A program made the translations under genes and the position numbers. From NCBI GenBank assembly GCA_040753675.1, contig JBFMEB010000009.1:3407-67406 (forward strand): 64,000 nucleotides of DNA. The letters are read 5' to 3'. Source of the stretch: Candidatus Omnitrophota bacterium. Lineage in GTDB: Bacteria; Omnitrophota; Gorgyraeia; JAHJTE01. Position 1 is the first letter of the stretch. Every line of letters starts with the position of its first letter. Below are positions 1-58,345 of this stretch, piece after piece. The notes beneath the pieces were generated by a model. It saw only the letters and a program-made list of their open reading frames with translations. It was not told the DNA's origin and did no database searches.

Positions 1-1
1 G

Positions 2-870
2 GCATTTTCATTTGCCTCAAGTAGCAGGGCAGAGGAGATTGATGTTATTGTTAGAGTCCAGGATGATTTAAGAGATGATTTAGAGAGGATTCGTAATATT
101 CGCCTGGTAAATCGCGATGGCAATCTAATTTATTTAAGCCAATTTGCAAAAATAAATTATGAAAATCAATTTAACGAAGTTTATAGACAAGGTGGCAGAA
201 ATGCCATAAGCATTTTAATTGAACCTGATACTCGTCTGACTGATGAGAGAAGATTAAAAGCAGCAGTCAAAGAATTATGGGAGAAAGAAAAGTTAAATTA
301 CCGAGACCAAGATTTAAAATTTGGCGAGCTTGAACGAGAAGAAGATGAGGCAATGAAAAAGATTGGCTATAATTTTATTCTGGCAATAGTAGCCATTTGG
401 TTTATGACATTTTTAACTCTAAGAGCAAGTATTAGCCAGACATTTGTGGTGCTTTCAAGCATTATGTTCTCAACTTCTGGCGTTTTTGTTGCTTCTATTT
501 TGGTGGGTAGCCCATTTGAATTCTCTACTTTGGTGACAATTTTTGCTTTAGGTGGTTTAGTTGTCAACAATTCTTTGGTCTTACTTTATGAGATTAACCG
601 TTTAAGAGGCCAGGGATTAGAAAAAACTGCCTCAATATTAAATGCCAGCCAGTCAAGGATGAGGCCAATACTACTGACTTCGATAACCACATTGCTTGGA
701 TTCCTGCCTTTGGCAATAGGTATGAGCGGGAATATTCCTTTCTTTACTGCAATGGCTCAGGCCTTGACCTGGGGTTTAGGCATTGCTACTGCCTTAACCC
801 TCTTTATTACTCCTCTTCTTCAAGCAGTAGCTGATGATGTTATAGACTGGTTTACTCGGATTAGGAAAAG
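2..870 (+). other. Domain: RND (AcrB/HAE-type) efflux permease C-terminal half (periplasmic subdomain + TM7-12)
   Basis: The translated motif ...LLYEINRLRGQGLEKTASILNASQSRMRPILLTSITTLLGFLPLAIGMSGN... matches the conserved RND region (AcrB ...[21 protein letters not shown]...). Several TM helices flank it. Confidence 0.6.
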
Positions 871-27800: not shown

Positions 27801-30800
27801 GCAATTGCAGAACCGCTAATTTAGATGTTCTTGATATATTTTTAAAAGTGCTAGAACCAGATTCTGTCGGGTTTTATTTACAGCCAAGAGTTGGATTTGG
27901 CGTAAGTCGTTGGAAGAAGATTCCCCGGGAAGCGCTCTTAGCTAATTTAGGCAAAATTTCTGTCTATGCTGATCAGAATGGTAGTTTTTATGAAGTAAAA
28001 GTTGAGCCAACCGGAGTGGCAATTATTGATGCGCCAAACCTTAGCGTAGAGATAGTAAATGGGGCATCTATCCGGATAATTGATAGAGATGGTAATGTTC
28101 TTAGATGTCACAGGACCACAGAAAACTTACTACGTATTAGCGGCAGGCCGAAAGTAATAAGAATTCATGATAGCACCTGTGAGACAACAGGGATTTTAGG
28201 CGCGGATCTTCCCCGTAGACTGATTCATCGGGTGCAACTTGTTGCGAGAATATTAGGGTTAATGCCGGCTCCAAAATTTGACCGGGCCGTTAAACTCATA
28301 GGATTATTAATTCTCCTTTGGCTGGGCTTGAGCTTTGCGACCCATCTTTCCTTCTTCTTATATACTCCCTTTATCTTAGGCATGGTGGCTGTCCGGGCTA
28401 ATCAAGCTAAACGTGTCAACGAAGAAGGATTAACTGCCTGGCTAAAAGAGCGGCTACATCAAATAAACCGGCAGTTGGAGCATGTTTCTACGCAAGTCGC
28501 GAGATATAGAAACAAGCCAGAGAAACAAAAAGAGCTCTCTGGGTTAAGAAGACAGTTCAAATCAATAAGAAAACAAATTGAATTTCTCATCGGAGAAATT
28601 CCTGAAGAAGTGCCTCAAGAAAAATTCTCTGATTTAAGAGGATTTAATAAAGAGTTAAAGAATGAGATTGAAGTTTTAGATGAGAAAATTCTTGCAGCTG
28701 ATAAGCGCGAAGATGATGAGACATTGACTAAATTAAATAGCGAAAAACAAGAAAAACTTTGGCTTAGAACAAAGGCGCAATTATTATTGGCTTTAGAATT
28801 TATGAATAAAAAGGAAAGATGGGGCTTTTTTGTTTCTACAGCGCTCGTTTTAATCATTGGCGCTCGCAATAATATGCAGACTTTGCAAAATGTAGAATTT
28901 TTCTGGTTTAAGGTAAGGAAGTTTAAGGAGGCAAGACGAATAGATATTGAGCTTAAAGATTGGTTGGCTGCAGTAGTAAGGTCAGTTGAAATTGGCGAAT
29001 GGAAAATAGAAGCGCCAGAAGAGCAGGGGTGTAATCTTGTTACACATCCATGGGTAAATCATTACGGAAGACTACAAGACGGAACTATTCGAGTATCTAA
29101 AAAGCAGATAGATATCACGCTTAATTTATCCACCCTTTCCGAAGGCCTGCGTAGTATTATTCATAAATATATAGGCCAATGTAAGGAATATATGGTCTTA
29201 ATTGATATGGCAGCGCATTTACGCCATATCATTATTAATATTAGTAATTATAAAACTGCCGTGGTTTCTCAAAGGACTCAAGATGAGGCATTAGAGATTA
29301 TTAAGAGAGTAAAAGCGTGGGTCAGCCGTGGCATTTCACCTTATGCAAGAAAGAAAGTTTACGCTGATTTAGAAAATGCCTCTAAATATTTAGAGTCAGA
29401 AGGTTACGGTAAGGTTATCGAGTATTTAGAATATACGATTTCTAAATTTAAGAAGAGGATGGCTAATCTTGATAACAAACGCACAAGTTCTATTGAGCAG
29501 ATTTCTATTTTGTTAGAACAATTAAGGACGAAAATTTCTACCCAGGAGGATATAAAAGCAGGCCTGCGTCTTGCTTTACAGTCAGTAGAAAGAGATAGAC
29601 GGCTTGACTGGTGCATAAATATTTTAACTGATTTAAAAGAAAGACATTTCCTGCAAGGAAAAATTTATGAGGATAAGGCATTAGATAAAATCAATCTTGG
29701 CTTAAGTGCTGCTATCTTAATTGCAAAAGCGACTAAAGAGGAAGGCGCTTCTTTTGAGGGTATAATTTTACAAATAAGCCAGCTGCTTTCTTATTTTATT
29801 AACGAGGTTACAATCTCTACTAATCGTTATAAGCCGCAATTACCATCTGATATTAGAATTCACCTTGAAAAAGGTGATAGGGTTATCTTAGACACGAAAT
29901 TTGAAGTAGCTAAGCAGGTATTCTATTATTTATTACGGATTAAACTTAGTAGTGAAACTTTGCCTTTAGAAAACCTTTATTTAAAAGTGAGAGATAAAGA
30001 GATTTCGCCCCAACTTAAGGCACGGGTTGAGCGCTTAGAAAAAGATGGCCCAATTCAAGCTGAAAAACTAATATTATACAGAATAATAAAAACGAAATCC
30101 GGCAAAACTGCGATGCTGCGCTGGCAGGTTGATACAAGCAAAGAGGCAAGAGAACTTAGCCAGGTAAACAACAGAATCTGGAAAAACAAAAAAGAATATA
30201 TTAATCCTCGAGTTGCCAGAAGGCGTAATCGCGAATACCCAACCGGCCAAGTTGTAGCAGAAGTTGACGGAGGAATTATAGGTAAAGTATTTTCAAAGGT
30301 TATCCATACAAAAGGCGATGCTAATAGCATACCTACTCCGGTTAATAAATTAATTCATATTCCTCATGGGGACTCTAAAATTTGCTATGCAATGGGCACA
30401 GTGCCTGAATTTAACGGCGATGGGATTATTAAGCATTTCATTGGTGTTCAGATGGAACTTGCGCTTAATGAAGGAATGGAATATTTGTTTACCCATAGTC
30501 CTATTACAGCACAGCCTCTGCACGAGCGTTATGGAGCAAGGAAAGTTCGAGATGTAACTCGTTGGAAAGGCCGCCCGCCTGTTCCCGGTGTAATAATGCA
30601 ATATAGTTTAGGTCAGCTAATTTGTATCATTAGCCCATCTGCAGCAGGTACAGACTCACTAATAGGAAGGCTTATCCAGGAGTTTAGTCAGATAGGTAAA
30701 ACAGTCAGGTATACCACAAGACCTCAGCGAACCGGTGAGATTGAAGGACGCGACTATTATTTTATTTCTGATGTTGAATTCGAACAAAGATTAGCAGCTA

Positions 30801-33800
30801 ATGAGTTTTTAGCCGTGGAAAGTAGTTACGGCGCTCGCCGCGCAGTGTCAATGTCAGAATTAAAAGAAAAACTGATTACTTCAAAAATCCTTATCTTGCC
30901 ATTGGGAAGTAAAGATTCTGAACTAGAAAAAATATTAGGCACTCGCCTTACTTACGTTTATATTTCCCCGGTCAGTGAAGACCAATTACGAGATGCAGAG
31001 TTTATTAGAAAAGAACTTAAATTTAGGCATAATATGCGGCAAACATCGCCAGATGAGAATGTTGAAGAGCGCATTAGGACCGGCATTGAAATACTCGCTA
31101 AAATAACACCTGACGATGCGGTTATCTATAATCTAAGAGATAAGCAAGAAGATGCTTACAAACAACTTAAGGCAACTCTTGGCAGCCGCCTGCCAAATTT
31201 CCCGCCACTACGCTCTACATCTAATAATATTCATCTTCTCGGAGGCAAAGCAGCAGAAAAGGAGTTGGCTGTGGTTGCTTTGGGTGGGAATGATTTCAGG
31301 AAAGAAGGCCAATCGCGCGAGACTTTAGGTGATGGTATTGACCAGGCTGAACAAGAGAATATTAGAGAACGAGCAATAACTATGGTCGATTTATTGACTG
31401 ATTACCGGCTTGCATTCGTACATGGGAACGGTCCCCAGTCAGGCGATTTCTTAAATAAAGCAGCTAAGAGCGAATACGAAGCTGTAAGGAATTTGACGAG
31501 TGTCGAAGCAAATGCCAATACACAATTTGACTTGGGCAGAAAGATAAGAAATGCCTTAGTTAACGAATCAGAGAGAAGAAACCTCGCCTTAAAGGATAAA
31601 GTCCGCTTTTTACTTACTTATGTAGAAGTATCCCAGGAGAGTTTAGCTAAAGAACCCACAAAGCCAATCGGGCCTTGGTTGACTTTGGTTGAAAAACAAG
31701 AAGCAGAGCAACAACATACAGATAGAGTTTATGCACAGAAGCGGCAATCTGAAAATGGCAAAACTTGGCGTTGGCTAGTGCTATCTCCTGAACCTGTTGA
31801 TATACCAATGTCCGATAACATTAAAGCTATGATAGATGAAGGAATGATTCCAATTTGCTGCGGAGGCGGCGGCATACCTGTAGTCAGAATCGGTAAAAAT
31901 TTAGTTAAACCAGTGCAGGGAGTTATTGATAAGGATTTAGCAGCACAAAAATTAGCAGAGAAAGTCGGCTCTAAAATATTAATTATTCTTACTAATGTGC
32001 CATCTGCATTTATTAATTTTGGCAAACCGGAACAGGAACCTTTAGGAGAAATTACTGTTTCGCAAGCAAAGGCATATATGGCTAAAGGTTATTTTGGCGT
32101 AGGCAGCATGTTTGAGAAAGTCAAGGCAGGAGTTCTGCATATTGAGGCAGGTGGAAGAATTGCCATCATCACTGATATTGATCACGTAGAAGATGCTCTG
32201 GCTGGCAAAGCCGGCACGCGTATAGTTGCGGATAAAAAATCCCAATCCGGCACCATAATCTTAAAGACTCTTTTATTACTTTTTGGTATTAGTCTTGTAG
32301 GAATTGTTATTACATTTAGTTTGGGCCACGCTTGTGCGATTGTCCCTATGTTTTTATTAGGGGTGAACATAAAAAATAGGCGCTCCAGCCAGAAATCAAG
32401 AAGGCATACGGCTATACTTGCAAGCAGTAAAAATTCAGATGACATAGGATCAATTCACGAAGTTATTCGTAGCTTATTTAAGGAAGTGGTACCTCAGCTT
32501 AAGTCTTTGAGACAGTCAAGAAAAGCATATGAACAAATTTTAAGAATTTTACGTAATAAACTTTCAGGACGTTCTAGAGAGCTTATATTAAAAATAAGAG
32601 AAGCCTTGAAACATCTATTCATCTTTTATCCAGTTAGAAAAAGAAACTTTTTGAGCCTTGAATTTACTTTATTTATTCTTCTAAGTGTCCTAAAACAATC
32701 AAAAAATAATAATATAGCAAAGGCTAAAGTGACAGATGCGCTAAAGGGCTATTTGCAGTACCTCCAAGGTTATATCCTTCGTTTAGCTCCTCAAGATAAC
32801 TCTGTAATAGTTAGTTTCTTTAGTCCGAGAGGACCGATAGATGCAGGCAGTGAAGTAGAAGAGGCATTGAGATTCAAAACCTATAGCCCAAAGCCCATAA
32901 CCAAGGACACTATTGTTTTAACTCCAGACGGAGAATTCTCTTTTAGTTTAGTGTCGAATTGCACAGAAAACTGGTTCGAATTATTCTCTGCCATAAGAGA
33001 AATTAATATTAGCACTGGTAAAGAGCGCTGGAACAAAAAACAGCATAAGACACTGCGTTTTATTTGTCGTAAATGGCTTATGATGCCTCAAATCAAGATA
33101 TTCGTTGCAAGGAATGCTCAAGGTAAAATTATTGGTTACTTGATATTTCTCGATTCTGATAAAGCTTTGCGTAAAGGATGCCTTGTTCGATATATAGCGT
33201 ATTCTGGTGTCTATCCAGATTATCAGCATAAAGGAATTGGCATTGCCCTACTTAGAGCATTGGTTAATTATGCCAAAAATAAAGGCCTTAGAGATTTACG
33301 TTGTTACACAAGCGCAGACCCAGCGAGTAGCTTTAGCCAAATAGACTTTTTGCGCAAGACTGCCATTAGGTTAAACATAGAAATCAAAGAAGAGCTTATT
33401 AAGCCAGATGACGAGTATTACAGATACCCTGATGGAAGTAAAATATTAAAAGTCACCCTCGGTTCAATTCAATCTAAAGTTTATACGATTGGGACTGGCC
33501 GAAGACGCATGAGCTTATTATTTGGAAGACTTAGGCCTCTATTAGCTGACTATAGGAGCTTGTCTGCATATCAGCCTCAAGCCATAAAAGGCCTTGATAG
33601 ATTTCATTTATTAAAAATTCCTAAGTGCAATTTATCTGTTTCGCCGCCGATTACGGGATTAGAGTTTCAGCCGCTTGAAGGCTTACATCGGATAGTTAAA
33701 GGTTCTTATCATATCTCTTACGAAGAAATGGGTTGGGGAGCATTAACTGATAATGATGTAATCAGCACTTATCCTTTTGGTAATTGCTTGGCAATTGCCT

Positions 33801-36800
33801 TCCAGGGCAAAAAAGATGGCCAAACCATAACAGGTTTAGCCCATATTAACGAGAGGGTTTGGCTAACTAATGAAAATTACTGGGCAGTTAAATCTTTGAT
33901 TACATATCTAAGAGACGATTTAAAATTGCAGGCAATAAGATTATTTTTACAAGGCAACAGCCAAGATACTACTAAATTGCTTACCTTAGAAGAGGAGATG
34001 GCCACAGAGCAGGATATAGAAATATTTGTGTTGCCAGGAAGAATTTACCCTCTTTATAAAAACCACATAACACACCTGTTGGTTACAAGCTTTGCCTGTC
34101 TTTTTGTTACTGCCGGTGTGCCTTTGTGTCTATTCTGGGATAGTTCAAGCAGGCAAATAGAGAAGGAAATAGAAAAGTATAAGAAAGCATTAGAGTTGGC
34201 GCCGAAGGTGCTTAATCGCGAACATCCACAAGGTGAGCTCGGCGGTGTTTCACAAGCTTCTCAACCTTCGGGCAATAACCTTAACCGAATTCCTTTCGAA
34301 GGCTTTACCTGCCTTTATACTAAGGATGGGTTTATAGATTCTATAGTTGATAGCAAAGGCCAGTTATGGGCAGAGTATGAATATTATCCTCGAGAGCGGC
34401 AGAGAGATTTATTTAGGAGTATTAGGTTAAAGAATATTTTTGGAGCAGATGATAGTGATATATTTTTAAAGCCTTCGATATGCGATGAGGAAGAAAGAGT
34501 CCAGAGATTTTCAATTGTTCTTGGAAATAAAACTATAGGACTTGTTACATATAGAATAGACAAAAAACAGCATACTATTGAGATTTTGGCCTTCTCAATT
34601 TTAGAAGAGTATAAAGACATATCAATTATTGAGACAGTATTAAACTGGTTGGCAATGGAGGCAGCGAGAACCAAGCTGAGAGTGCAACTGTCTTTAGAGG
34701 ATGCTTTCTTAATAAGAATTGCCAGACGCTTTATTAGCGCTAAAGGCTGGCCTATACCAAAGACCTTCGTTTCCAGAGAGGTAAATGTAAGGAATTTGCT
34801 TATTAAATACAGTCGCTTCCTGTCTGATTCAACTTCTCGCATGCGAAGACGCTTAAGTTCTCAAGATATACATGAGGCGAGATCAATAATTTATGAGTTG
34901 TTGCAAATAGAGGAGCTTTACAGAAGAGGACTTAGGTTAGAAGCCATTGATGTTTTTGTTCCAACGCAGTCAGGGGAGTTAGAAATAGATGCGTTTGTAA
35001 GAAGCGCAGAAGATGAAATATACATGGTTGAAATTTTTAATTTGAGTTGGCACCACAATTTAAGACATAAATTATTTCATATATTTATTAGACATAGAGA
35101 AGATATTGAAAGATATTCAAAAGATAAATTTGGCCGTAGTCCCAAAGGATTTATTCTCTTGGTTTTTAGTAGCCATAATGAGGCGATTAATAGCGCTGAG
35201 ATAGAGAGGAGAATTCGTAGCATAGAATGTGTTCCAGAAGGATATATAGAATTAATAATTACACAGCCAAATGCCCACCAGTATTTACCTGATAATGAAA
35301 GTCTGAAAATAGCAGTTGAATCAGTGATTGGGTCATCTAATGCAGGAAATTTGCAAGGAGCAAGACAAATTTTAAGTGCTGTATTTCCTTTAGCGTTTTT
35401 TGGCTTAAGCATTAATTTGTCAACCTTAGGCATAATCGCCTTAAGTGCAATTTTGATTTATTTTATTCTTAGTGCCTCAACAAAAACTAAAAATACCATC
35501 AATGCCAGTTTAAAAAAGCCAATTGATAATCATTCAAAGAGAATTATTGTAAGGCATCTAAACGAAGGTATTGAGGCCTTGGACCGATTAGTTGGACAAA
35601 GATTGAAAGCCAGCTCGCAAGATGAATGCTTGGTTGTGGTAATCACTGGCAAAAGCGGGGCTGGCAAGACCACTCTAGGAAAAGTTATCGCAAAACGCGG
35701 TATAGGAGAGATACGAGCCGACAATGTTGAAGTTATAGCTGCAGATAGATTTTTGGCATTTTGGGCATTAGAAGATACAATAAAGCCAAAGGCATTCTTA
35801 AGAGTGTTTAATCGTGTTTTAAAAACAAAAAAAGTAATAATAGTAGACGGCATATTTAGTTATCGTCTATTTGAGGACATCCGTGGTATTGATTTAATAG
35901 ATATTCACGTCCTCCTCGAAACCCATGAAAGAATCAGGCAAAACAGATTAAAAGAGCGCGATGGAAAAAAGTACGACCCGAATAAAGGTTTAAGTGAATT
36001 TTCAAGACAGCATAGAGAATTGCCGAATTTGGTTGGCAGAGATTTAATCGTAATTAACGATGAACATGTTGATATAGAAGCATTAGTTAGCCAGAGGTGT
36101 CATGTTATGCGCCAGACCTCATTCAATAAAGGGATGGCCGGCAAGCAATTAAGCAAAAATATAAATGAATTATCGCTATCAGAGATTATTAAGAGATTGC
36201 GTTTAGCAGACAAATACTTCGAGATTGATGGGGTCAGCAAAGAAGATGAGATTTTAGTTGCTGAGGTTTTAGAAGAGCTTATTCAGCAGGGCTTGGCAGG
36301 TGCCAGGGATGTAGAGATAATAAACATCTATAACAATTTATATTCTGCAGAGCCATTTTTTGCAGCGCGCAGAGATAAAGAACTCTACTTAGGCATCAGT
36401 ATTTTTACGAATAGAAGACTTAACCGAGAGCAAAAGAAGGGTTTATTGAAAGTGTTTATATATGAAGAGATTTTATCTAAAAAATATTTATCTAAAGATT
36501 CTTCGGCTCGGAGCCAACAACTTTTATTAGAAAAAATACTTGTTTTATATAGGTTGATTCAGGCGCTTTCTAAAAATAGGCGTACTGATAAGCAATTATT
36601 TGATTTGCACTTATTTTTGACTGGTCTTATGCGATTTCCACAAGTTACACAGGAGCAGATCGCGGCATTTGAACGGCTCGTTGATACCTTTAGTCATAGT
36701 GAACATATTGACACTGCGTTAAAAGCAATAATTAGTTATATAAGAGATTATTATCCAGATTTGGATGTGCGAAGAGCTGCCTCTTTAAGAGGCAATTCTT

Positions 36801-39800
36801 TGTTAAAGGCGAGGACAATCCTTCTTGATGAAGACTTGATGGCAATGTATGAGGATAGAGAGCTTTCAGAACATGCCAGACAAGAACTTCTTGTTTTATC
36901 AAAGTCAAAAGAGACTGTTAAGCAACTTATCAGCACAATGTTAGAGCGCCATAAAGGTGATAAGGAAAGATTAGTATCTGTTGGCATAGCTATTGCTAAC
37001 TCTCTTTCTTATAGCGCTGCACTTTATGCAAGAGTTACCCAAAGACTAATGGAGATATCTCGGGATAATGGTGAATCAGCAGGGTTAGCCATTGAGATCT
37101 TAAAAGGTATTGGAGTTTTAGAAAACAGGATTACCAGTTTTGAAGAGACAAGAGAATTGATAGACAAACAAGTAAGCAGTGTAGATCCAAGCAGTCTGAG
37201 ATTTCCGGCATTTGTAGCAGAAATTCTATGCCCGGTTCGAGGGTTGCAATGTGTATACGATAAACCAAGGAGGAATTATAGCGCAGTTATGGTTCCACAC
37301 TTTTTACGTGATACAAAGGGGCCGGTTATGGTTAGGATAGACTGTTATTTTGACTCAAAATTAGGTTATTATGTCTTCAGATGGCAGAACGTACAGGGCA
37401 AAAAGAAAGAATATGTTTATTATCGAATTGTTAGTGATTCGATTGGGTTTGAACTATTCTTGCCTCAGTTTCCTAATTTAAAAGGTAATAAACATGAGAT
37501 TGCTGAACAAATTTCTAGTCAGGACCTAAATTCTAAGCAGTTTGGCGACAGGGAATATATTTTGCCAGCTAAGGATAGAGGGCTACTTACGTTCAACATA
37601 AATATAGGCAAGCGCTCTGTGACAGCTTGTATGGCAACAGGCGACATGAAAAGGGGAGTCGTAAAATTAAGAGTAATTCTTATCGAAGAGTTAGTATGTT
37701 ATTTATTCTTCCCAGTTCATAAAAGATATTCAAGTCATCAAATCCGAGACTATGAAAAAGAAGGCTTCCCCAGCATTTCTCGCGTTAAGCAGAATCCTTC
37801 TGATTATTTGTTACCGGTTAGCTTTGAGGAAATTGGGAATGCCGATCTTGAGCACTGGAGAATGGACAAGCCAATAATCTTTAAGAAAATCAGAGAAAAA
37901 TATCAGCGCGGCAAGCTTGCTCAAACACTTGGCGCATTTTCGGGAATGATAAAACCAGTAGAGATGCAGATTAATGAATATTTTGAGAGATACGGGAAGG
38001 CATTTGAAGAACTGCAAATGAGTCAGCATAATTTAACAAGTCCGAATGAGGCATTTTCTGGAATTTACAGAGAATTGGCTTCTTTGGGTATAATCCAGCT
38101 ATATTTACATAGACTAATTAATGATTATGATGTGGAATTTGGTATTGCACTGCAGGAAGTCAACCAAAACTTAGCATTAGTTGGCAATAGCTTACGTCTA
38201 TTAAAGCATAAAATAGATGATAAGCGGCAAATCGTCCAAGACGCAGAGTATCAAGTTTATGCCTTTAAGAACCGGCTCGGAATTAAACCCAAGTTTAGAA
38301 GAAAGAGTGGAAAAAGAACTAGGCCCGATGAGAGAAAACAAAAACAGGATGCGTTAGCTGCAGCGCAATTCATTATTAGGCTTATCGAATTTATTAAATT
38401 AGGCAGAATATTTAAACTTGGTAAAATAGTCACTGGTTTTGAAGAGCTGATTGCTCAAAGTGTAAGAAATGGTATAAAAACAGAAGAGGATTCAAATAGA
38501 TTAAAGACATTAACTACAACATTGCTTTGCTGGCTTTCGCCTTTAATCATTGGCTACTATACAAGAAGCATACCAATTATGGTTGGATTATTGGAAAAGA
38601 TTTCGCAGATAGAAGAAAGAGATTTTAGTGAGGTTATTAGGAGAGGGCAGGACATACTTTTAAACTTAGAGCAGATTAGGCCTTATTGTCGTCAGGTAGA
38701 ACTTTTAAAGCAAGCTTTAGATGAGTCATTAAAATGGTTCAAAGAGGTAGATAGATTAATTTCTGAAGCTTTAAAAAATTTACAAAATAAAATTAGAGGC
38801 AGATTAAGACAGCTTAATAGGAATAGCAAAGATTTGATTAAAAAAGCGCAAGACATATTCGGGATGCCCTTAAATACATTTGCCGAGAAAGAGAATTTTC
38901 TGAATTTAGCTTCAGATTGGTTAGAAGATTTTGAAATAGAAATTACTAAAAATAGATTAGGAGGCCTAACCAGAAAAAAAGGAGCGGCATCTTCCTTCCT
39001 TGATTCTCCATTTTTGCCGTTACTTTTTCTTGGTTTAGGCTTAGCAGGTTTTGGCGCATTTTATCTTTACAATTTACTATTCGGTTCCCAGGCCACTCTT
39101 GCTCCACCGGAATTAATATCACAAGCCATAACTCATCTGTCACATGTTCTAGTATCGAGTATCGAGCATCTAGTATCTATCATCTCCAATTTCCTTTCCA
39201 CCAACTACCAACTACCAACTACAAACTACTTCTTTTTGCCTTTTATCTTCGGCTCCATCTTCAGTCTCTACGATGGACTTAAAGATGATGAGCAGCCAGA
39301 TTTATTTAAAACCATAGAGGAATTATTACCATTTGCCAGGAATAGTTTTCATCCAGAAATCATAAATAAATTCCAGGAACTTTTTAATAAGGCAATAAGA
39401 AAAGCAAGGACTAATGCTGATGTAGCCTTGGCACTATCTGTAATATTAGAGGATTTATTACAACATCCGGGCAGTGGTTGTCTTAAAAACTTCTCTATAA
39501 GAACCTTAAGAATTTTGCATTCTTACTGGCCTGATATTGTCAGCGAGGCAAAGATGGCGGAGGTCTCTATTTCTAAGGCTTCATTTGAAGAAAGGCGTAG
39601 TAACCTTGAAAGAGAGTTTATAACATTTGTTAATCCCGCTAATGGGGAGGTTTTAGAGTTTAAGCATCCAAAATCAGGACAGGTTCAGAGATTTTGGCAA
39701 GGAAAGCGTGACCGTTTATTTTTCTATAAGATTCTAACAAGTCTATTATTAACAAACGGACAACTTATGGTTGAGGGCATAGAGTCTATAGGTGATGGCA

Positions 39801-42800
39801 GGATACATTTAAGCGCGCCAATCAATAAAACTATAACATTTACCCCTGGCACAAAGACAAGGATTCTGATAACCAGAATAAACATAGAACCATTAAGAGC
39901 CGGTGTGCGTACTGTTAGCGCAATACCTATAACAGATTTTTCTAAAGATGCTGATACCGATATTTTTAGGGAGAGGTTTAGTTTAGATGGTGAACTTTTA
40001 GATACGTTCTGGTTTGATTTTCCAGGACAAGACGCTGATTTAACAGTCTCAATAGGAATAGAATCATCAAACGATGCATATAAACGGAGAATATCTGTGG
40101 CTGGCAAGCCCTATTTGGTATTTGCAAAGGCGAAGAAGCATATGGTGTTAAAAGAAGCTGATGAGCCCCTCTTCGCTATGCCGATAGAAAGTATTGGGCT
40201 GGCAAGGAGGGTTGCTCGTATAACCTCATATACCCAGAGGAAGATATTTACCTTGATTAGGGTATTTCCAGGCGACGACGGACTACCAAGCATATTGTGG
40301 CGCATAGCAAATAAAATGTCCGATAGAGATAGTATATCGATAGCGAAAGTGGAGAATTTAACTATTCGTAAGTATCAGAGAAAAGATTCAGCGAGAAAAC
40401 TGGATACAAAGGGCGTAACGAGATATATAGTTGCCTTTGATGAGAGATTCTTTTTGAAGAGTGGCGCAGATATTAAAGGATGCGTTGATGGTTGGTTTTT
40501 AATTAGCAAAGATCAGCCACCAGCGCTTATTTTTTATGCGCAGTCTGGAAGAAATGATGAAAATAATTTATTTGGGAATATTTTATTATTTGACCGTTTT
40601 GGGGTTTTTGTCCGTACCGGTAATGCTGTGCCAAACGTTGATGAGATTAATGAACAGCCTTTTAATGGCAACTTTCTTATTAGTAGAAAGCAATTGTTTG
40701 GCAGCAGTAAAGCCTTGTATTGGAAGATAAGAACATCGAAAGGAAGACTTAAAACCTTGAGATGGTGTTTAGGCAGCTCTTTTAAAGAGAACGAAGTTAC
40801 GCTCTTAGTAAAGGATGGTTTTCCCCGGATAGCGCTTAGTTGCCCTGATTGGGAAGCAGGTAATCTTGATGCAGAAATATATTTATTAGAATTCAACGAA
40901 AAAACTCATCAGCGCTCAAAATCAATTGTTTCGCTCTTTGATCTGACAAAAGTTGATTATGAAATAGGCGTAAGATTATGCGCGGAATTAATCCTCCAGG
41001 ATATATTATCAATAGTTATGGAGAAGATTTATATCTCTACAGGCTACAACCACAATAATTCAGATTTAAATGTTAGAAGAAAAATGTTTATTTTAGCCAT
41101 CAAATCAGCTCTTATGCCTAAATTAAATATTTTTTCTCTTTCTAAGAAGACGTATTCGCAATTATTGCGATATTTAGTTGATGAGATAATAAGAAATATC
41201 GATGCGGCAATAGAAGGATTAGATGTAACTGAGCAAGAAAAAAAGACGGTTTGCAATTTAGTTAAAAATGTTGCTTTAAGGAGAATAAAAGCGCTCGCAC
41301 CGGAACTTTCAATTTTGGCAGATTTAGAAAAACTAAAGGATATCGCTATTCCTAAAGCTAAAAAGAGTTTTCTTGATTCTATGGCCAATAGGATGAAACC
41401 AGAGTTTGCTCAAGCATTCACAGATTTGTTTGGCTCTAAAATGGATTACGAAACCAGGCTGGCAATTTTATATTTATTATTTAAGACATTCTCATCAGCG
41501 GAAGCGCTGGGACAGGAATTGATAAGTCATCTAAGAAGCACTTTGTTAGAGAATATTGAGGCAGATATCAGAATGGCTAAGCAGATGAGCGAAGAATCAG
41601 ATTTAGGTAAGCTTGTTCAGACAGAAAAAATTCTTGAGAACATTAATTTGATTATAGGCTTAAATTCAGAGTTGGCTGTGTTTAATATAAATAAAAATAC
41701 TTTAGAAGAAATTACAGACCTATTAAGCAAGGTTAAAGCTAAAATTAGACAAATTAAAGAAGAGCAGTCAGGATTATGGTTAAAGAGAAGAGAGGTAAGT
41801 TTCTTATTAGATAAAGTGAATATTCTGCTTGATAATCAACAAAGATTAAAAGCAAGTACGCTATTGGCAGCCATAAAAACAAATTTATCAGAACAAGCTT
41901 CTTTAGAAAGAGAGATCTTAGGCGAGAGAAGCGATGAGCTTAAGGCTTTGGTAGCTAGATTTCATGTTGCTGAAGAACGATTAAAAGCAATTTCGCAATA
42001 CCGCACAAGAAGACCAGGACCGATATATGGTTTATTATTTTTAGTGTTTGCCGCCGAGTTAATTCATAATTTAATCCACCCTGCCACAAGTCCACAAGTA
42101 CTCACCGCTGGTTTTGGCAGTCTGCCACTCTGGGGAATGATAATTGGCTTGGGAGTGGTTGTAGGGTTTGGTTATTTATTAAGAAAGCAGATTTTGAAAT
42201 ATCTGATTAATCACATATTTAGACAACCTCACTGGGTATTCCATGGTGGTACGCTTAATAGATTACCTCTCATAGTTAGATACGGACAACTTATGTCTTA
42301 TTCAGCATCTGCCTTGCTGTTTAATAGAGAGGTAACAAGAAACAGACAAACCGAATCGCAGAGATTGACTCTTAAATATAAAGAAAAAGGATATGGGAGG
42401 ATTAGAACTTTTGCTCATTTATTTTGGAATATAAACATAATGTATAGATTTAGAACCAACTTCAATTATGTCTATTTAACAAATACCTTAAGACATGCCT
42501 GCTATGAGAGCAAAAAAAAACTTAATGCTTTACATGTAAGCAATGAAAGTAGGGGAGAAATTTTTGATGGGGAAATAATTCTGATATTTTCTGGAAAAGC
42601 CATTGAAAATTCTTTAATTGATTATTCATTTGGCAGACTTTTCTCTGCTCTAAAAGGTTACCTGCGATTTTCTTCTCCAGTTGATTTATCTTATTTAAGG
42701 GCGGTTATTGTAGTTAATGGACGCAAGAAGGTTATTGAGGAACTCTTGGTTCAGAGTGGTTATGATGATGTAGAGGTCATTGGAGTTGAGTCTTTTGATT

Positions 42801-45800
42801 TATTACAAACAGAAGAAGGCCAAAGCTACATCAGTGCACAGTTGAGAGGCCGCGGTCGCCAACTGGCGGGCCTTTCCAACCTCCGTGCCCGTGCAGCGGA
42901 TTACAGCAATTTATTAAAAGGCATCTCGGCATTGCTATTAAGTTCTATCTTAGCTGGGGCAGTGTATGTTCTTGCAAAGCCGATTATGCAGGAATATGCG
43001 AATATGGGCGAAGCAGCTGGCTGGGTGCCGATACGTATGCTATTTACCTTTGCCTTAGTTGCAACAACAGTTTTATTTATCTATCAGTTAGCTAAAGAAA
43101 AGTCAATAAAGACAGTATTTAGACCTAAACTTAAACACAGTGAATTTGGATGGATTGTTTTAGTCGGCGTTTTTGGTTCATTCCTGGCGGCAACTTGTAT
43201 TTACAGCGCGGTTAATCTTAGCACGCCGTTTCTGGCAGCGCTTTTTTATTCACCATTTGTTCCAATAATAGTTGCTTTACTCAAGCATAAACTAAATATT
43301 CCGAAGACAGTATTCTTTGGCGTGCTGTTTGGCGCATCCGGGATTGCGCTTTCAATTATTGCAGGTAAGGGTAGTGCTGAAATAGTTACGTTTAGCGTTT
43401 TAACTCTATTAGGGATTGCTGTAGCATTTATAGGCACTTTCTTTTTCGCAACAAGCTTACTTCTTATTCAACGTAAATTCTCATCTAATCAAGGTATTGC
43501 CTCTACACAGATTTTGTTTTTTAGCTCAATAACTTCTTTGGTTTTGTTTGGTATAGTTTTATTAGTTTCTAAACTTTCCCCTATTTTTGAATGGAAGATT
43601 CTTGGTTTAGGTTTAATGCGCGCTACATTTTTATTATGTAGTATTTATGGAATCCGCCTTTTGCCAGCTTCTTTGGCTGGCGTGTTAGCAGGAACAATTC
43701 CGATATCAGTATTGTTATTTGAGCAGGCAAGTTTAAGCGCCAGCGCTTGGTTTTTAGAGGCGCTTGCCTTGTCAATGGTTCTGTTCAGCGTCTGGCTTCT
43801 TTCGCCGAGAAATGAGAATACGCAATTATTTGAGAGAATTCAGAAGTTAATTAACAAAGGTAGGCAAAATGAAACTTCAGCCTACGAGCTAATGGATGAG
43901 ATTGAAGCTCTGGGTGAGGCTTCTGACGTTGTCCGGGCATTAAAAACCATAAAACCAGCTGATGAATATGAAGAGACAATAATTTTAAATTCAATATTAA
44001 AATTAGGGAGCTTAGAAGATTTAGAAGAGTTGGGAGAGGAAAAAATAAAGGCTTTGATTGAAGAAGGTAAATTTGGCTTTACAGTAACAAACGAAAATAG
44101 CAAAGAAAAGATTTGGATTCATCTCAGAGCTCTGGAGCATATTTTGGCAAGCCATAGTGAAAACTATTTAAAATTAATGAAGTTGTGGAAAAACTTTGTC
44201 TTTTCTAACCAGGTTACTTTAGATCAGATTATTATTTTAATTAGAGAAACTTGTCAAGAAGGTTATCCTATCTATTACAGAGGAGCGAACCACTGGTTTA
44301 CATATGTTTGGTATGTAGCAGACTATTTAGCTAAAAAAACTGGAATACGCCGTATGGAAGCGAGAGTTAGAAAGCGCAAGAAAAATACATCATTTTCAAG
44401 CTTGGCAACTGCCTTACCAACTGCTGGTAAAAACTTCTTGATATTAATTAGAGGAGAGAAATGTTCTAACTTTGAAAATGATCTATTTCCAGCGAGAGTA
44501 AAGAACATATTTGATTTGCGACGGATTAATTTATCCTGGTCGAATATGAGACTGATACTTAAGCGCATAGGTAAGAAACGAACTGGCGGTAGATGGTTTT
44601 GGTCAGGAGCTGCGCCAGAATTAATTGAAAAGGCAATATATTTAACAGCCAGATTTGGTAGGTATGCTGGCAATTTTACAACACCTAAAGGCAGAGATTG
44701 CGCCGTTTGTAGAAACTACCGCTTACCTCTTAAATTGCGATTTAAACTAAGAATTTTTGCTTTAGAGATACTGGTTGCAGAAAATGGATATGTGCACGAT
44801 GCCTTTCCAGTTGGTATCAGACATCTTATCAGAGATACGATTAAATCAATCCCAGAGAAGCTGGGTGGTAGCACTTTAAAAAATAGATTGTTAAAGGTAA
44901 TTTTATTTTCAGCTATTTTGAGTGTGGGGTTATATTACAGTGGAATTTTTTCATTATATTGGTCGTTAAAAGATACAAATCAGTTTTTCTTTAATATAAT
45001 TACAGCGACTATATTTACTGCGCTCTCAGATTTGCTATCAGTGTATCTTTCTAAAAAAAGACAGCATTATCCAATTCTAAGACTACCTTTTGAGCTGGCT
45101 ATAGGTGCTGCCGCGGGTCTTATCTTTACAATCTTTCAGCATTATATTATTGAAGCCTATTTTCCTAAAGACCAATCTTCTTACTTCATTTATTTTGTAC
45201 GGACCTCACTACTATTTTCAATTTCAGTATTCAATATGCTTATATATGCATTTTACAAAAAATTTGAAAAACGGTTATTTAAGATTTTTGACAATGCAAA
45301 TTTAGGAAAAATTATATTTGATGTTCTTGTTTTTAAAGCACTTATTGGTTTATTCAAATATCCTTTCGCTGCAATAGTACTCGATCAGAAAGACGTATTG
45401 GTTTTCTTTTATGGCTTGGATATGCTTAAGGTTGGGGTTATGGTTTGGGCGATAAATAAAGGTGTACCATTTTGGAATTTGTATGACAAGTGGGGCATTA
45501 ACAAAATAATAGCTTCATTAAAGAGACTATTTACTGGGAGAAAAGATGCAAAAGAGAAAGAATTGTCGATTGATATAACTAAAGTTAAATTAGAAGGACA
45601 GGAAGACGTTATTAACAATTTAGCTGAAGCTTTAAGAAGACTATATGAAACAATGCCATTTAGAGCTGCTTATCTTGTTGGTTCAAGGGCAAAAGGCAGA
45701 CAATCAAATTCTTCTGATGTTGACCTAAGGATAGTAATTAATGATAGGTCTGACGAAGCCAGTTTATTAGAAGCAATAAATAAAATATGGTTGGAAATTG

Positions 45801-48800
45801 GTGGCGGCAGGACAAAGTTAGATGCACATATATTCAAACAAAGCGATATTTCATGGTTTATCTGGGAAAAGATTTGCAATTTACTTTCTCTTAATATCGC
45901 AACTTGGCTTTGTATGAAGATTATGGATTATAAGGTTAAGGTCGCACAAGAGAAACCCGTGAATTCTTCCGAAACCGCCAACAACTTTATTCAAAGGCTC
46001 TGGCAACGGATTAGGAGTCATTGTGTTATTGTAAGCTTTGGCTTGGCGATATTGTTATCAGCGCTTTACCATCTTATTCGAGGAGGGACGTTGGGAGAGC
46101 TAGCTCAAGGCTCAATCCTCGCCTTTGCCGCGACAATAGGCATCGCCACAGGGAATTTAGCACAAAGCACTTATTATGATGAGCGAAAAGTAATGAATAT
46201 TCTTGGCGGAAGGATGTGGGTAGAAAGCAGAGAGATGAGTAAGGAGCAGCAATTACAATTAGCGCGAGAAGTTCAAGAGAAAGGCAACCTGGCAGCGTAT
46301 TGGGCGCTTGTTTATTCTTTACAATGGTATGCAGAGGACTTTGCAGCCAAACATAATTCAAAGGATTTGCCTTACGATGATTGTCTCGATGTCTGCATCA
46401 GCGCTATCTATTATGTTGCCAGGATATATAACTCCACCGCAGGTGCTCGCATAGAAACATTGGCTTTCTTAAAATTTAACTCTAACTTAAGGACAGCATG
46501 GAAGGATAGACAAAAGGATATCTCTATCGGAGACTTGTTAGAGGAAATTTATAAGGATAAGGTGGGTGAAAAGAAACATCCCGATGAATCAAGTATTCTG
46601 TTGACTCGTCAGCAAGCAGAAAATTATTTAATTAGACTATTAGAACCTCTTGGATTAGATCCTTTTGGGAGAAACCAAGAGGTATTTATTTTAACAGCTA
46701 TGCATAAGGCTGGAATAATTAAGATGCCTCGCTACCAGATAGCTGCTCGCTATGGTTTAAAACCCTGCAGTATTTCAGATATATGGGAAAAAGTCAGAAC
46801 AAAATTCTTATTTTATTATAAAAGGCATGCCTTGCCGCATATTTGGGAATGTCAGATTAGTAGGAACGGAATTTCCAATAATAGCTCACTGGTGTCAAAT
46901 CAGGCTCAACATCATCATCAGCCGAATATCTGGGAATCTGAACTCGGGCCGACTGATGGGAATAGGTTTGGCAGATGGGCATTTTGGCCGGGGTCAAATT
47001 CAGATGGTAGATTGGAGATGGCAGATGGCAGTTCTCGGTTGTCGGATATGGCTGTGGATGGATTGATTGAAAAAATTGAGAAGGAATCCAAGCCGCCAAA
47101 GAGAGAAGAAGATACGAATAGCCGCAGGCGGCGATTAATAAGATTTTATGAGGCCCTGTTAGCGCTTTTAGCAAAACAAGGTATTTTTGAGGGTCAGACG
47201 CTTATCTATCCTGCTGCTGGCCTTGATATTGTTCCAGGCGCTTATGTTGATACTATAGTAATTAATCGCGATGAGTTATACAGTGCTGCTTCTGGTTTAT
47301 TTATTCGCGATTTTGAAAGATATACTAAGCGATTGAGATATGTTGCTGGAGTGTTTGCAGGAGAATATGGAGGTGAAATGGTTAATGCATTACGGGTAGA
47401 TTTATATAATAGATATATTGGCCCAATAAGAACTTCACATAAAACAGTTCTCCTGAAAGGATTTTTTGATTATGCTGCACAGATTCCCGAAGATTTCTTT
47501 GTTTATCTTGCTGAGCTTGATAGTTTTTTAAATCCAGGTGACAGAATTATATTAATGAATCTTAACGAAGCAAAGCACGTATTAAGCCATTTATTGCCTG
47601 ATAGATATAGAATAGTAGATAGTTGGTTATCCAGAGAACAAAAATCAAAATTGCAAGCTGCATTGGCAAGGATGGTTTCTAGAAGAGCAAACTATAAAAA
47701 CCAGTTCCCGAGTTATTCGAATAAAAAAGATTCATGTTGGCATTTTCTAATGCCAAATACGGTTGTTATTTTAGAGAAAGTAGGCGAGCCGGGTTTAAGA
47801 GGGCATTCTTTAGTCCAGCGACATGGGTTAGAGGGTTTAGATTTTCCTAATCCAATGGCTTCTGAATTTTCTTCTCATCGCGTTGCGAATTGGCCTGGGC
47901 CTGAAGGATGCAACGGCAATGATTACGGCACGCAGGTGCCAGGATCGTGGAGACGTTCAAATAAGCCAACAAGGAGAATTCCTGTATTTAATTGGAATAA
48001 TTGTACTATCTCTTTAGGGGCGGTGGGAATGGAGAAATTTACGTTCTTTGCTCAACCGTTCAACGAGCCAATAACGTATGAGGGACAGGTATCCAAGTCC
48101 CTTGCGAGAAGCAATTTCTTTGAGAGAGGTAATCTGGTTGGTATCCAATCGCAGAGAGATAAGTTTCTTTTTTGGCCTGACGAATTCTACCTTAACTGGT
48201 TTGAGTTCGTCCAAAAATTCAGTGATGCTATGGGTATCCCAGAATCGGCGTTCTTCTTCCAGGGATTTTCCCGACAAAGTCGGGATCCCGCTGACTTTTT
48301 TACCTCTACTGGTGCGGGAAAATTTAGGGATATGTTTAATCTTTTTCATTTTTATTTACCTCCTCGCATATCTTCGACGCCAAGTATATCTGTATATACA
48401 AAAGATGTCAAGAAAAATCTAGGAGAAGACAGGAATCGCGGCTGGGATGGCCCAGATCCAATGGCCTGCGAATTCGGACCTCATCGCGTGGCGAATTGGC
48501 CGGGATATAATTCAGTAAAGGATAAGAGTATTAAGATTTTTAGAAGCGAAGGAAGAATAATAGTCCAGGGCGAACCAGGGGCGTTTAGTGTTTTTGAAGA
48601 AATTTTAGAGTTAGACCAAGTCTGGGTTACTGGGCTTATAAAGAAGTCAATTGAAGTTAGAAATCGAGAAGATTTAGAAGATATGTACGGATATGATAGG
48701 TTGCCACAAGCTTGGATTTTAGATAAAGAAATTAATATTTGGTTTTCAGAAAATCTTTCTGAGCCGTTTATTTGTCTTAATAATAGGGCTATTGCTGTCA

Positions 48801-51614: not shown

Positions 51615-52925
51615 ATGTATAGTAACTCAATGATTAACAACGAGAAAAGAAAGTTCCAGCGCATAAGCGAGACGCTGCCGGTGCGGTTTAGATTCTCGGA
51701 TAGGCAGGGCTCTGTCTGGTATGATGCAAAGACCCAAAATATCTCTGAGGGTGGTTTGTTTGTTACCAATAATTTGAGCTTAGATGAGATTGGCGATGTT
51801 GTGCATGTTGATTTGAATATTGATAATAGCTTATTGCGAATTATATGTCAGGTTGCTTGGGTAAAGAGAGAAAATGATATAGCAGCTGGCTTTGGTTTAA
51901 AAATAATCCAAATAGAGCAAAAACATAGGCAAATTTTCCTTACCTATATATATAGCAGAGTCAAGCCAAAGAGAATGCCCTGCAAGATAAAATTCTTAAG
52001 GCAGCCCATATCTAAACTGCCAGATAAAGAGCGCAGGTGTTTCCAAATCTTAGATTATATTCGTAGATTTGGTCCGGTTTCAAAGGCAGATATCTGTAAA
52101 GAAATAGATTTAAATGCTGTTAGCGTTGGCAAGTTTATTGAAGACTTTTTAAGATTAGGAATAGTATTTGACTGCGGCCTTGATTTATCCAGCGGCGGCC
52201 GCAGAGCCCAGCTATTTAGAATTAATAAAGATTTTGGGTTTATTTTAGGCATAGATGTTGATAGAGATAGCGGAAATCTCTATGCTTTAGTTGCTAATAT
52301 GGATTTAGAAATCATTATGGAAGAAACAAAACCCTTTGGGAAACAGGATGATATAAAAAATATTTTAATTAATTTCATCAATGCAATTAAATTTAAGATA
52401 GCTAATAATGGCAATAATATCTTAGGAATTGGAATCGGCCTTGGTGAATCGCACACTGACCATAGATTAGCAGATTATTTATCAGAAGCTGTTGGCCTAC
52501 CTGTTATTATTGAGGAGGGTTTTCACTTAGAGTCTTTTGCGCAGAGTTGGATTACCAGGGCATTGTCGAATAAGAATATACTTTACATACATTCCAAACA
52601 TCACTTAAGTTTAATCTTGCAAGGTGATATCTATAAACCTGAGAGAGAAATTGAGAATAAAGTTGAATTAACTCCAATAGATTTGCAGGATAAGGTATTG
52701 GCTTTATTAGAGTTGCTAGGTCCAGATATAGTTTATATTTCAAAGAAAGCTGAGAAAGAGTCCCCTCTTTTGAAACAGGCGCTTACGGAACGCTTGAAGA
52801 GAACTGATATTAGCGAAACTCAGGGTATTAAAGTGCTTAGCTCAGACGTTGACGAGAAAAATGCTATAGCTCTCGGGGCTATAAGCCTGGTGATGAAGGA
52901 GATATTTGTGGCAATCTGCGGATAG
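51615..52925 (+). CDS. PilZ-domain / ROK (NagC/XylR)-family regulator-like fusion protein
   Basis: N-terminus RKFQRISETLPV ... TQNISEGGLFV carries the PilZ RxxxR + DxSxxG motifs. A wHTH (ILDYIRRFGPVSKADICKEIDLNAVSVGKFIEDFLRLGIV) and a ROK-like sugar-kinase fold (ILGIDVD...) follow. The ROK Cys zinc motif is not evident. GGGAGA RBS lies 11 nt upstream of the ATG. Confidence 0.6.
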   Translation: MYSNSMINNEKRKFQRISETLPVRFRFSDRQGSVWYDAKTQNISEGGLFVTNNLSLDEIGDVVHVDLNIDNSLLRIICQVAWVKRENDIAAGFGLKIIQIEQKHRQIFLTYIYSRVKPKRMPCKIKFLRQPISKLPDKERRCFQILDYIRRFGPVSKADICKEIDLNAVSVGKFIEDFLRLGIVFDCGLDLSSGGRRAQLFRINKDFGFILGIDVDRDSGNLYALVANMDLEIIMEETKPFGKQDDIKNILINFINAIKFKIANNGNNILGIGIGLGESHTDHRLADYLSEAVGLPVIIEEGFHLESFAQSWITRALSNKNILYIHSKHHLSLILQGDIYKPEREIENKVELTPIDLQDKVLALLELLGPDIVYISKKAEKESPLLKQALTERLKRTDISETQGIKVLSSDVDEKNAIALGAISLVMKEIFVAICG

Positions 52926-53935: not shown

Positions 53936-53965
53936 GTGCTAAAAAGAAAGGAGCAAGTTAAAAAT

Positions 53966-58210: not shown

Positions 58211-58227
58211 TTTCTAGTTAGTTCTGA

Positions 58228-58345
58228 AAAAATATTTTTTAACGCAGATATACGCAAATCTAACGCAGATTTTCGCAGATTTCTCTACTAAATATCTGCG
58301 ACCATTTGCGTTACATCGGCGAGAATCTGCGTTCAAGAAAAGGTT
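58228..58345. repeat. Imperfect palindromic word array (cgcagat x4 then atctgcg / tttgcgtta)
   Basis: taacgcagatatacgcaaatctaacgcagattttcgcagatttc ... atatctgcgaccatttgcgttacatcggcgagaatctgcgtt, between the SBP gene and the first permease. Confidence 0.55.

Follow-up and report, generated by a model that had tools for sequence, protein, structure and literature searches.

Whole-protein modules, an internal twin-arginine-like helix and a nested antisense antitoxin gene in a giant open reading frame of an Omnitrophota bacterium

The stretch of DNA analysed here (the window) comprises 64,000 nucleotides (nt) from a Candidatus Omnitrophota bacterium (GenBank assembly GCA_040753675.1, contig JBFMEB010000009.1, positions 3,407 to 67,406) and carries a giant open reading frame (ORF). 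In the region from nt 42900 to nt 50830 a preliminary description, made from the letters and a list of ORFs, had noticed modules resembling complete autonomous proteins, and had proposed either a proteolytically processed polyprotein or a recent in-frame fusion of formerly separate genes. This region is part of one open frame and not a set of separate genes, being the final ≈2,900 codons of an ORF of more than 17,182 codons. The modules are autonomous units in the evolutionary sense, and we moderately favour the view that the product is a single membrane-tethered chain whose end piece is exported by means of an internal signal, cutting being optional.

Frame +2 was free of stop codons from nt 2 to nt 51547 (17,182 codons), ended with a stop at nt 51548–51550 and was open past the 5' end of the window, at a G+C content of 38%; each of the other five frames contained 814–2,118 stops, that is, one every 10–26 codons. 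A codon-usage model trained on six ordinary genes downstream of the giant ORF was applied in windows of 300 nt and favoured the giant frame in 340/342, so that the entire stretch resembles coding sequence of the host and not a succession of spacers. An ATG at nt 353 was rejected as the start of the giant gene, since an AcrB-like domain is already under way upstream of it. This domain, of the AcrB/RND (resistance-nodulation-division) type, was detected at nt 2–838 (Pfam ACR_tran, E 9.5e-45, profile positions 754–1018 of 1021), corresponds to the last ≈265 residues of a transporter domain and leaves the window at its 5' end. The 17,182 codons are therefore a lower bound, as is the distance of about 16,580 residues that the preliminary description had placed between the N-terminus and a twin-arginine signal. 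The AcrB/RND-type domain is a second module of complete-transporter type embedded in the giant frame, the true start of which lies upstream of the window. Only one of the 239 Met codons in the giant frame was accompanied by a Shine-Dalgarno motif; the ordinary genes of the window are also devoid of such motifs, so that this count is uninformative on internal translation starts. No embedded RNA was matched by Rfam at gathering thresholds.

The 3'-terminal part of the giant ORF carries a cassette in which a twin-arginine (RR) helix is followed by a LysM and a YkuD domain (Table 1). The YkuD catalytic motif HGT...GCIR is intact, and its His, Gly, Cys and Arg (HGT...GC.R) were invariant in the alignment of homologues (A1). 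The sequence MGRRDFLVGGLGFLVGLALTPLDVLAATKKK is present ahead of LysM; the domain is preceded by MGRRDFL and a hydrophobic stretch, the sole site of the kind RR-x-F-L plus hydrophobic segment among the 17,182 amino acids (aa). When compared with the S/T-R-R-x-F-L-K pattern, the segment was found in agreement with it, reading G-RR-D-F-L-V, then an h-region of mean hydropathy 1.9 and then AATKKK. The preliminary description had assigned to nt 50108–50830 a twin-arginine translocation (Tat) signal, a LysM domain and a YkuD L,D-transpeptidase; the last two were recovered by Pfam (E 2e-6 and 7.9e-21, respectively). The RR segment, a twin-arginine signal-like helix, is only suggestive of a Tat signal.

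All 37 homologues of the LysM-YkuD unit that matched the last 480 residues of the giant protein were standalone proteins of 269–552 aa ending where the YkuD domain ends, the best being an Omnitrophota L,D-transpeptidase with 40% identity. Standalone enzymes of this kind (e.g., P0001 of a Candidatus Omnitrophota bacterium, 330 aa) share with the window unit the order N-terminal hydrophobic signal or anchor, linker, LysM and YkuD, the same catalytic motif, and the end point of the cassette. They are at most 40% identical to it, their signals are N-terminal and, in the closest relative, not of the RR type, and the window unit is embedded in a longer frame and followed by a tail of 210 aa. Two standalone relatives of the YkuD unit (P0025 and P0034, 502–505 aa) combine PilZ with YkuD; here, a pilZ gene directly follows the giant gene that ends with YkuD.

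Two further giant ORFs contain the cassette, that of L007 at 55% identity over 299 aa and that of L070 at 64–65%. In both, similarity begins at the RR motif and ends just past YkuD, the flanks being unrelated: the cassette comes after a hexapeptide acyltransferase in L007, and between a methyltransferase and a Radical_SAM domain in L070. All three giants keep the two arginines (GRRDF, SRRAF, FRRTF), a Gly-rich h-region, a (V/L/I)-x-A-A motif and three basic residues. L007 has Ile in place of the Met of the signal-like segment, so that translation is unlikely to start internally there. A candidate signal-peptidase site, VLA↓ATKKK (nt 50180–50200), follows the RR helix, with an equivalent site in all three copies; (V/L/I)-x-A↓A fits the -3/-1 rule of signal peptidase I.

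Internal helices of polytopic proteins routinely start translocation. In particular, internal Tat-dependent helices have been experimentally established in such proteins: once Sec has inserted the upstream helices it lets go of the last one, which is weakly hydrophobic and carries positive charges on its C-terminal side, and Tat inserts it (Tooke et al. 2017, PMC5449189). It had been argued for the window that an internal twin-arginine signal could act only if the chain was cleaved; since internal twin-arginine helices work without cleavage (PMC5449189), this argument fails. The known Sec- and Tat-dependent proteins (the actinobacterial Rieske Sco2149, Sco3746 and polyferredoxins; PMC5449189) resemble the window segment in the position of RR before the last helix, the modest hydrophobicity, the several positive charges right after the helix and the C-terminal globular domain. 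They differ from it in having 3–5 helices and cofactor-bearing domains; in the window, over 16,700 residues of the frame come before the helix, and the LysM-YkuD unit that follows it has no cofactor. In addition, the threshold of the Tat hidden Markov model is not reached and, in L007 and L070, further modules come after the cassette.

Upstream of the cassette, hydropathy indicated many helix pairs, which separate many of the soluble modules of the giant ORF, an even number of helices in the EamA block and a final, unpaired RR helix. The EamA block (Table 1) had been described as a ten-helix transporter at nt 42900–43810, and this held: Pfam EamA was matched in two stretches, corresponding to two repeats (E 1.5e-10, 41.9 bits against a cut-off of 28.2), and ten hydropathy peaks with alternating Lys/Arg flanks were counted between nt 42923 and nt 43800. 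Both ends of the block are predicted to be cytoplasmic, leaving the membrane side of the chain unchanged. The block is very divergent; a phmmer search gave no relative, the word index being saturated and nothing scored. Two of the helix-hairpin linkers, at nt 25616–25765 and nt 41972–42115, are homologous (34% identity, with ..LIH(S/P)xT(N/S)P(E/Q)V..AGF.. in common), which suggests a reused membrane-tether element.

From hydropathy we infer a tethered chain with cytoplasmic modules and an exported end. The product would be made as one chain tethered to the inner membrane. Blocks whose helices are even in number, such as the EamA block and the helix hairpins, would anchor it without changing side, so that the kinase, acetyltransferase, methyltransferase and nucleotidyltransferase-like modules, and with them the use of ATP, acetyl-CoA and S-adenosylmethionine (SAM), would stay cytoplasmic. 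The final segment of the chain that is hydrophobic, though only moderately so, is preceded by RR and followed by KKK; it may then serve as an internal export signal, probably through a Sec-to-Tat hand-over as in the dual-targeted polytopic proteins. LysM-YkuD and the tail would thereby reach the periplasm, and YkuD its peptidoglycan substrate. Signal peptidase may subsequently cut VLA↓ATKKK and release a periplasmic LysM-YkuD end piece of ≈450 aa; the signal would also work without the cut.

Several observations weigh against the export of the end piece from a tethered chain. The RR helix, more than 16,700 residues into the frame, is far from the N-terminal position expected of a Tat signal; its sole Pfam match is TAT_signal (PF10518), with 8.7–9.4 bits against a cut-off of 22.7 and E 1.4–2.4, and no NCBIfam match was obtained, the threshold of TIGR01409 not being reached. 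The helices between the EamA block and the RR helix, read from hydropathy only, are either eight or nine, thus ambiguous. In L070 the Radical_SAM domain follows YkuD without an obvious intervening helix, which is awkward for a model with inside and outside modules. Finally, cleavage has been favoured in the literature for proteins of this kind, in which C39 and S8 peptidase domains occur (West-Roberts et al. 2023, bioRxiv 10.1101/2023.11.21.568195), and the N-terminal part, where such peptidases are expected, lies outside the window.

The alternative that survives best is a true polyprotein, i.e., a precursor cut into module-sized proteins, either by a protease of C39 or S8 type that belongs to the chain or to a partner, or by signal peptidase acting at signal peptides within the chain, with the EamA block, the methyltransferase-like units and LysM-YkuD working as separate proteins. 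The polyprotein idea is already in the literature, the peptidase domains of Omnitrophota giants having been reported together with a proposal of cleavage (West-Roberts et al. 2023), and it is in accordance with modules that are whole proteins elsewhere, with Ser/Gly/Asp-rich linkers at the homology-defined junctions, and with an RR helix that is followed in three copies by (V/L/I)-x-A↓A and basic residues, as fits the -3/-1 rule. On the other hand, no protease domain was found by Pfam in the 17,182 aa of the window, the N-terminal part being outside it, and no word of five residues was present four or more times in the ORF. The cleavage motif that the preliminary description had proposed to look for at module boundaries did not emerge: no common motif was seen by eye at the homology-defined junctions, a weak test as these are few. 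Moreover, the helix hairpins that lie between modules are readily understood as tethers of a single chain, and the RR helix can function without cleavage. We regard processing into separate proteins as less probable than the tethered chain; limited processing of the end piece may take place at the candidate VLA↓A site. Flavivirus-type polyproteins, which the host signal peptidase processes at internal signal peptides, share with the window one long frame, an internal signal-like helix with a small-x-small site and membrane segments alternating with soluble enzymes; they differ in that the present ORF is a chromosomal bacterial gene, in which no equivalent of the viral protease was found within the window.

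On the strand opposite to the giant frame, an intact gene for a CopG/BrnA-type antitoxin with its own promoter is nested in the region (Table 1). The match with PF12441 covers nearly the whole profile, and the promoter block is conserved 5' of brnT in four other loci (alignment A2). No brnT was found in the window, whereas in the loci L066, L067, L068 and L069 brnT is directly upstream of brnA; the window has lost the toxin partner of the antitoxin. The nested antitoxin is 64–79% identical to the copies in these four loci. L068 and L069 each have an intact brnT-brnA pair, located antisense within an ORF of 3,964 codons in the former and of 1,959 codons in the latter; L067 has one brnA copy antisense in an open frame of 2,420 codons and a brnT-brnA pair within the next long open frame; and in L066, a contig of 1.4 kb, the pair lies inside a frame of 276 codons. 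All six brnA or brnT-brnA copies from the five loci (6/6) occupy the codon-aligned antisense frame of long ORFs. In L067 (nt 7225–8055), the annotated brnT-brnA pair is found where one long ORF stops (nt 7262–7264) and the next long frame is open from nt 7225; the giant gene may there have been split at the toxin-antitoxin cassette, or re-started across it.

Substitutions among the antitoxin copies amounted to 22, 15 and 51% at the antitoxin codon positions 1, 2 and 3, respectively, and amino-acid differences amounted to 28% in the antitoxin frame versus 56% in the giant frame. This third-position bias, together with the fewer changes in the antitoxin frame, indicates that the antitoxin is the sequence under selection at the protein level. 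In addition, the codons TTA, CTA and TCA, which are read as stops in the giant frame on the opposite strand, never occurred in the 879 codons of the six antisense antitoxin and toxin copies, and made up 5.5% of the codons in the ordinary genes of the window. The avoidance has a P of 0.002 for the window gene alone and of ≈3e-22 over all copies, which are not independent of each other. Since the antisense genes never use these three codons, the continuity of the giant frame would be maintained by selection, and the sequences argue for a giant gene that takes in self-contained cassettes. With type II BrnT/BrnA operons (PF04365/PF12441) the nested gene shares the PF12441 domain, an own promoter and ribosome-binding site, and relatives (L066–L069) with brnT directly upstream; it is unlike them in being antisense inside a giant ORF, without a toxin in the window and without TTA, CTA and TCA, so that the opposite strand is open.

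The antitoxin cassette is bracketed by two 49-nt direct repeats (Table 1), which in the giant frame read ..PMA(S/C)EF..HRVANWPG and may be insertion or recombination scars. A third, weaker copy was observed at nt 46970–46993, ahead of the module termed B. The corresponding part of the chain (nt ≈47899–48455) is not a protein module but a passenger, produced as the giant frame reads through an antisense antitoxin cassette that has its own promoter. A candidate module C on the + strand (nt 48017–48275) was rejected as a protein domain, its database 'homologues' being antisense translations of brnA genes. WPG was likewise discarded as a general junction or cleavage motif: it occurs in three copies only, all local to the flanks of the antitoxin cassette, and in none of the related proteins. 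A bolder scheme would take the giant ORFs as obligatorily read-through 'cargo rails' for in-frame cassettes and stop-purged antisense toxin-antitoxin operons, with a genuine polyprotein as product, from which exported units, the RR-helix, LysM and YkuD cassette among them, are released, flavivirus-like, by signal peptidase at internal signal peptides; we consider it doubtful, and somewhat more so than the general polyprotein reading.

That the modules are complete proteins elsewhere, as had been proposed, was borne out by the search for separate genes: besides the standalone LysM-YkuD enzymes, the whole-protein unit termed module B (Table 1) aligned over the full length, from the initial Met onwards, with P0044, a protein of 254 aa that stands alone. 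Its relatives are at least 15 proteins, mostly of 1,600–7,640 aa, in which it takes varied positions. The AlphaFold model of module B (pLDDT 74, pTM 0.79) resembles class I SAM methyltransferases, the top Foldseek matches in the PDB being all methyltransferases (E 2e-4 to 1e-3, TM-score 0.3–0.55). Orthologous giants did not present these segments as conserved structural repeats devoid of autonomy: the YkuD cassette has unrelated flanks in L007 and L070, and the closest syntenic giant, in L001, has within its last 2,490 residues only the C-terminal tail of 210 aa in common with the window. Module content would thus turn over quickly between relatives. These observations suggest that the giant gene has grown by taking in whole-protein cassettes in frame, selection preserving both the unbroken reading frame and the sequence of the useful modules.

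Such growth differs from the recent in-frame fusion of adjacent genes, with some modules as decaying relics, which had been offered as the second possibility. In its favour, a family of heptanucleotide repeats present both in a true spacer (nt 62268–62300) and inside the ORF suggests that former spacers became linkers, and several modules score weakly in Pfam. Against it, the YkuD cassette of the window, compared with that of L007, gave saturated synonymous sites (pS 0.855) and a pN of 0.284; together with the kept catalytic residues, this indicates that the cassette is neither recent nor a relic and is old, constrained and under purifying selection. As its best standalone relative is only 40% identical, the cassette is also embedded in two other giants and codon usage is host-like throughout, recent fusion seems largely refuted for the YkuD unit, and for the region we hold it to be very improbable. 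Least credible of all is a frame that is not translated whole, either because the assembly is chimeric there or because a series of distinct genes only seems continuous: the window DNA and its PilZ protein had no match in the searched public collections that would allow a cross-check, and a genuine gene does lie on the opposite strand inside the ORF, but against this stand 17,182 stop-free codons at this G+C content, long syntenic frames in 15 independent assemblies, antisense cassettes from which precisely TTA, CTA and TCA, able to interrupt it, have been purged, and the presence of the same gene class in complete nanopore genomes (Nielsen & Lui 2026, bioRxiv 10.64898/2026.06.07.730766).

Table 1. 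Features of the giant gene and its 3' border (positions in the window).
Feature	Position (nt)	Strand	Basis and remarks
Giant open reading frame	2..51550	+	Frame scan; codon-usage model; AcrB-like domain leaving the 5' end
EamA/DMT (drug/metabolite transporter)-like ten-helix block	42917..43810	+	Pfam EamA in two stretches; hydropathy
About six hydrophobic segments	44888..45445	+	Hydropathy only
Polymerase-beta-type nucleotidyltransferase module (NTP_transf_2, MntA-like)	45614..45949	+	Pfam E 1.5e-5 to 5.5e-6
All-helical segment, called ECF sigma factor in the preliminary description	46184..46810	+	No family match
Module B, whole-protein unit, class I SAM-methyltransferase-like fold (predicted)	47012..47830	+	Homologues; AlphaFold; Foldseek
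49-nt direct repeat, copy 1	47850..47898		Giant frame reads ..PMASEFSSHRVANWPG; 80% identity to copy 2
Nested CopG/BrnA-type antitoxin gene, 111 aa, intact	48014..48349	-	Pfam PF12441 E 2.4e-14, 54.3 bits against a cut-off of 28
Antitoxin promoter (TTGACA, 17 nt, TATACT), then GAGGAGG and ATG at 48349	48383..48411	-	11/12 consensus positions
49-nt direct repeat, copy 2	48456..48504		606 nt (202 codons) from copy 1
RR-helix, LysM and YkuD cassette	50024..50902	+	Limits set by homology to L007 and L070
Signal-like segment: M, G, RR (50114-50119), h-region (50126-50182), AA (50183-50188), T, KKK (50192-50200)	50108..50200	+	
LysM peptidoglycan-binding domain	50294..50419	+	Pfam E 2e-6, 28.1 bits against a cut-off of 20.9
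YkuD L,D-transpeptidase catalytic domain	50438..50818	+	Pfam E 7.9e-21; His 50699-50701, Cys 50747-50749
C-terminal tail domain	50912..51541	+	Two matches to the L001 giant (37% and 26% identity), one at its very C-terminus
pilZ gene	51615..52925	+	Directly 3' of the giant gene; Pfam PilZ E 2e-13

The preliminary description had also recognized, at nt 46190–46810, an extracytoplasmic function (ECF) sigma factor with regions 2 and 4, and this assignment was not confirmed by the domain searches that recovered EamA, LysM and YkuD. The segment is all-helical and its residue spacing is sigma-like by eye; no Pfam family was found at E ≤ 1, no NCBIfam family at E ≤ 0.1, no PDB sequence below E 0.86, and no match in an exhaustive phmmer search of 1.84 billion representative proteins. 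BLASTP against a true sigma region-4 segment, which in the protein P0041 adjoins a copy of module B, was not significant, and a single-sequence AlphaFold model was helical and, at pLDDT 39, unusable. A conserved pairing of a sigma factor with module B was also rejected, as the stretches 5' of module B in ten other proteins were not sigma-like by eye, no profile search having been run on those. The nucleotidyltransferase module sits between two hydrophobic blocks, in the sense frame; it matched the NCBIfam model MntA_antitoxin (E 7.9e-6, under its cut-off) and the PADLOC model PDC-S09 (E 3e-7), and is thus a second, weakly MntA-like, toxin-antitoxin-related element. Nothing beyond these weak nucleotidyltransferase matches was retrieved by the defence-system models of PADLOC. 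The C-terminal tail had no Pfam match and belongs to no known family.

The giant gene fits the published 'multi-enzyme' class of Omnitrophota giant proteins, of at least 10,000 aa and tiled by many Pfam families, including starch synthase PF08323, glycosyltransferase family 1 PF00534, GNAT PF00583 and HEAT (Nielsen & Lui 2026). It has at least 17,182 codons and ≈15 different Pfam families, none dominating, with PF08323, PF00534, GNAT, kinases and HEAT among them; 52–93 hydropathy peaks were counted depending on the threshold, from hydropathy only. As in the published class, it belongs to an Omnitrophota genome, many hydrophobic helices are indicated, a pilZ gene is immediately downstream and the neighbourhood is devoted to sugar handling; pilZ after the giant genes and many transmembrane segments were reported by West-Roberts et al. 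(2023). Unlike most members, in which a SecA-DEAD or a C39/S8 domain is present, neither was found in the 17,182 aa of the window, the N-terminus being outside it. An internal RR helix with LysM-YkuD and nested antisense toxin-antitoxin genes are mentioned in neither paper (West-Roberts et al. 2023; Nielsen & Lui 2026).

Downstream, the gene order giant gene, pilZ and GH94 is common to the window and to L001, an Omnitrophota metagenome-assembled genome (MAG). PilZ orthologues are found in the same position with 62% identity in L001 and 58% in L070, and the GH94 phosphorylase (nt 53936–56407, E 6e-100) is 80% identical to its L001 counterpart. In 15 related Omnitrophota loci an open frame upstream of GH94 runs off the fetched DNA, and about 40 of the 42 best loci are MAGs of Omnitrophota or of the Planctomycetes-Verrucomicrobia-Chlamydiae (PVC) group. 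The GH94 phosphorylase opens a sugar-handling cluster (nt 53936–62191, all on the + strand) that comprises a solute-binding protein, two ATP-binding cassette (ABC) permeases and an MFS_2 transporter. Heptamer arrays of TAAACTC, or of its complement GTTTAGG, were observed in the spacers of the sugar-uptake genes at nt 56430–56496, 56865–56896 and 60313–60486, the last being a long inverted repeat.

Other features of the giant ORFs were recorded. The protein of the window is almost devoid of internal repeats, apart from a duplication of ≈430 residues with 32% identity (nt 17117–18421 versus nt 18602–19882), within which Pfam HEAT scores weakly at nt ≈17675–17890. A heptanucleotide tandem-repeat family (ATCTAGC/ATCCAGC) occurs in the ORF at nt 23973–24075, 27273–27360 and 39148–39229, besides the intergenic spacer at nt 62268–62300. 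Where a heptamer unit in the ORF would bring TAG into frame, CAG or TGG stands in its place (0/3 in phase, 4/9 out of phase, a small sample), and the three copies are alike at the protein level too. Among the related loci, the giant ORF of L070 (nt 1–9960), with Radical_SAM after the YkuD cassette, ends in an Alginate_exp domain of the outer-membrane barrel type, and that of L068 (nt 3001–14895) has a precomputed Pfam match with Intein_splicing.

Whether giant bacterial ORFs of 10,000–150,000 codons are translated whole, and whether their products are cut, has been posed as an open question in both papers (West-Roberts et al. 2023; Nielsen & Lui 2026). For annotators, the nested antitoxin implies that some 'domains' of giant proteins would be the reverse reading of real small genes suppressed by gene callers. 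The antisense cassettes appear to keep their own protein sequence and never stop the giant frame, thus providing sequence evidence for frame continuity under selection and for the uptake of mobile cargo. The RR-helix and LysM-YkuD cassette, conserved in three giants, offers in turn a precise candidate site of processing or export (VLA↓ATKKK, nt 50180–50200). Together, the cassette and the stop-purged antisense antitoxins would make the translation and processing of giant ORFs a directly testable question.

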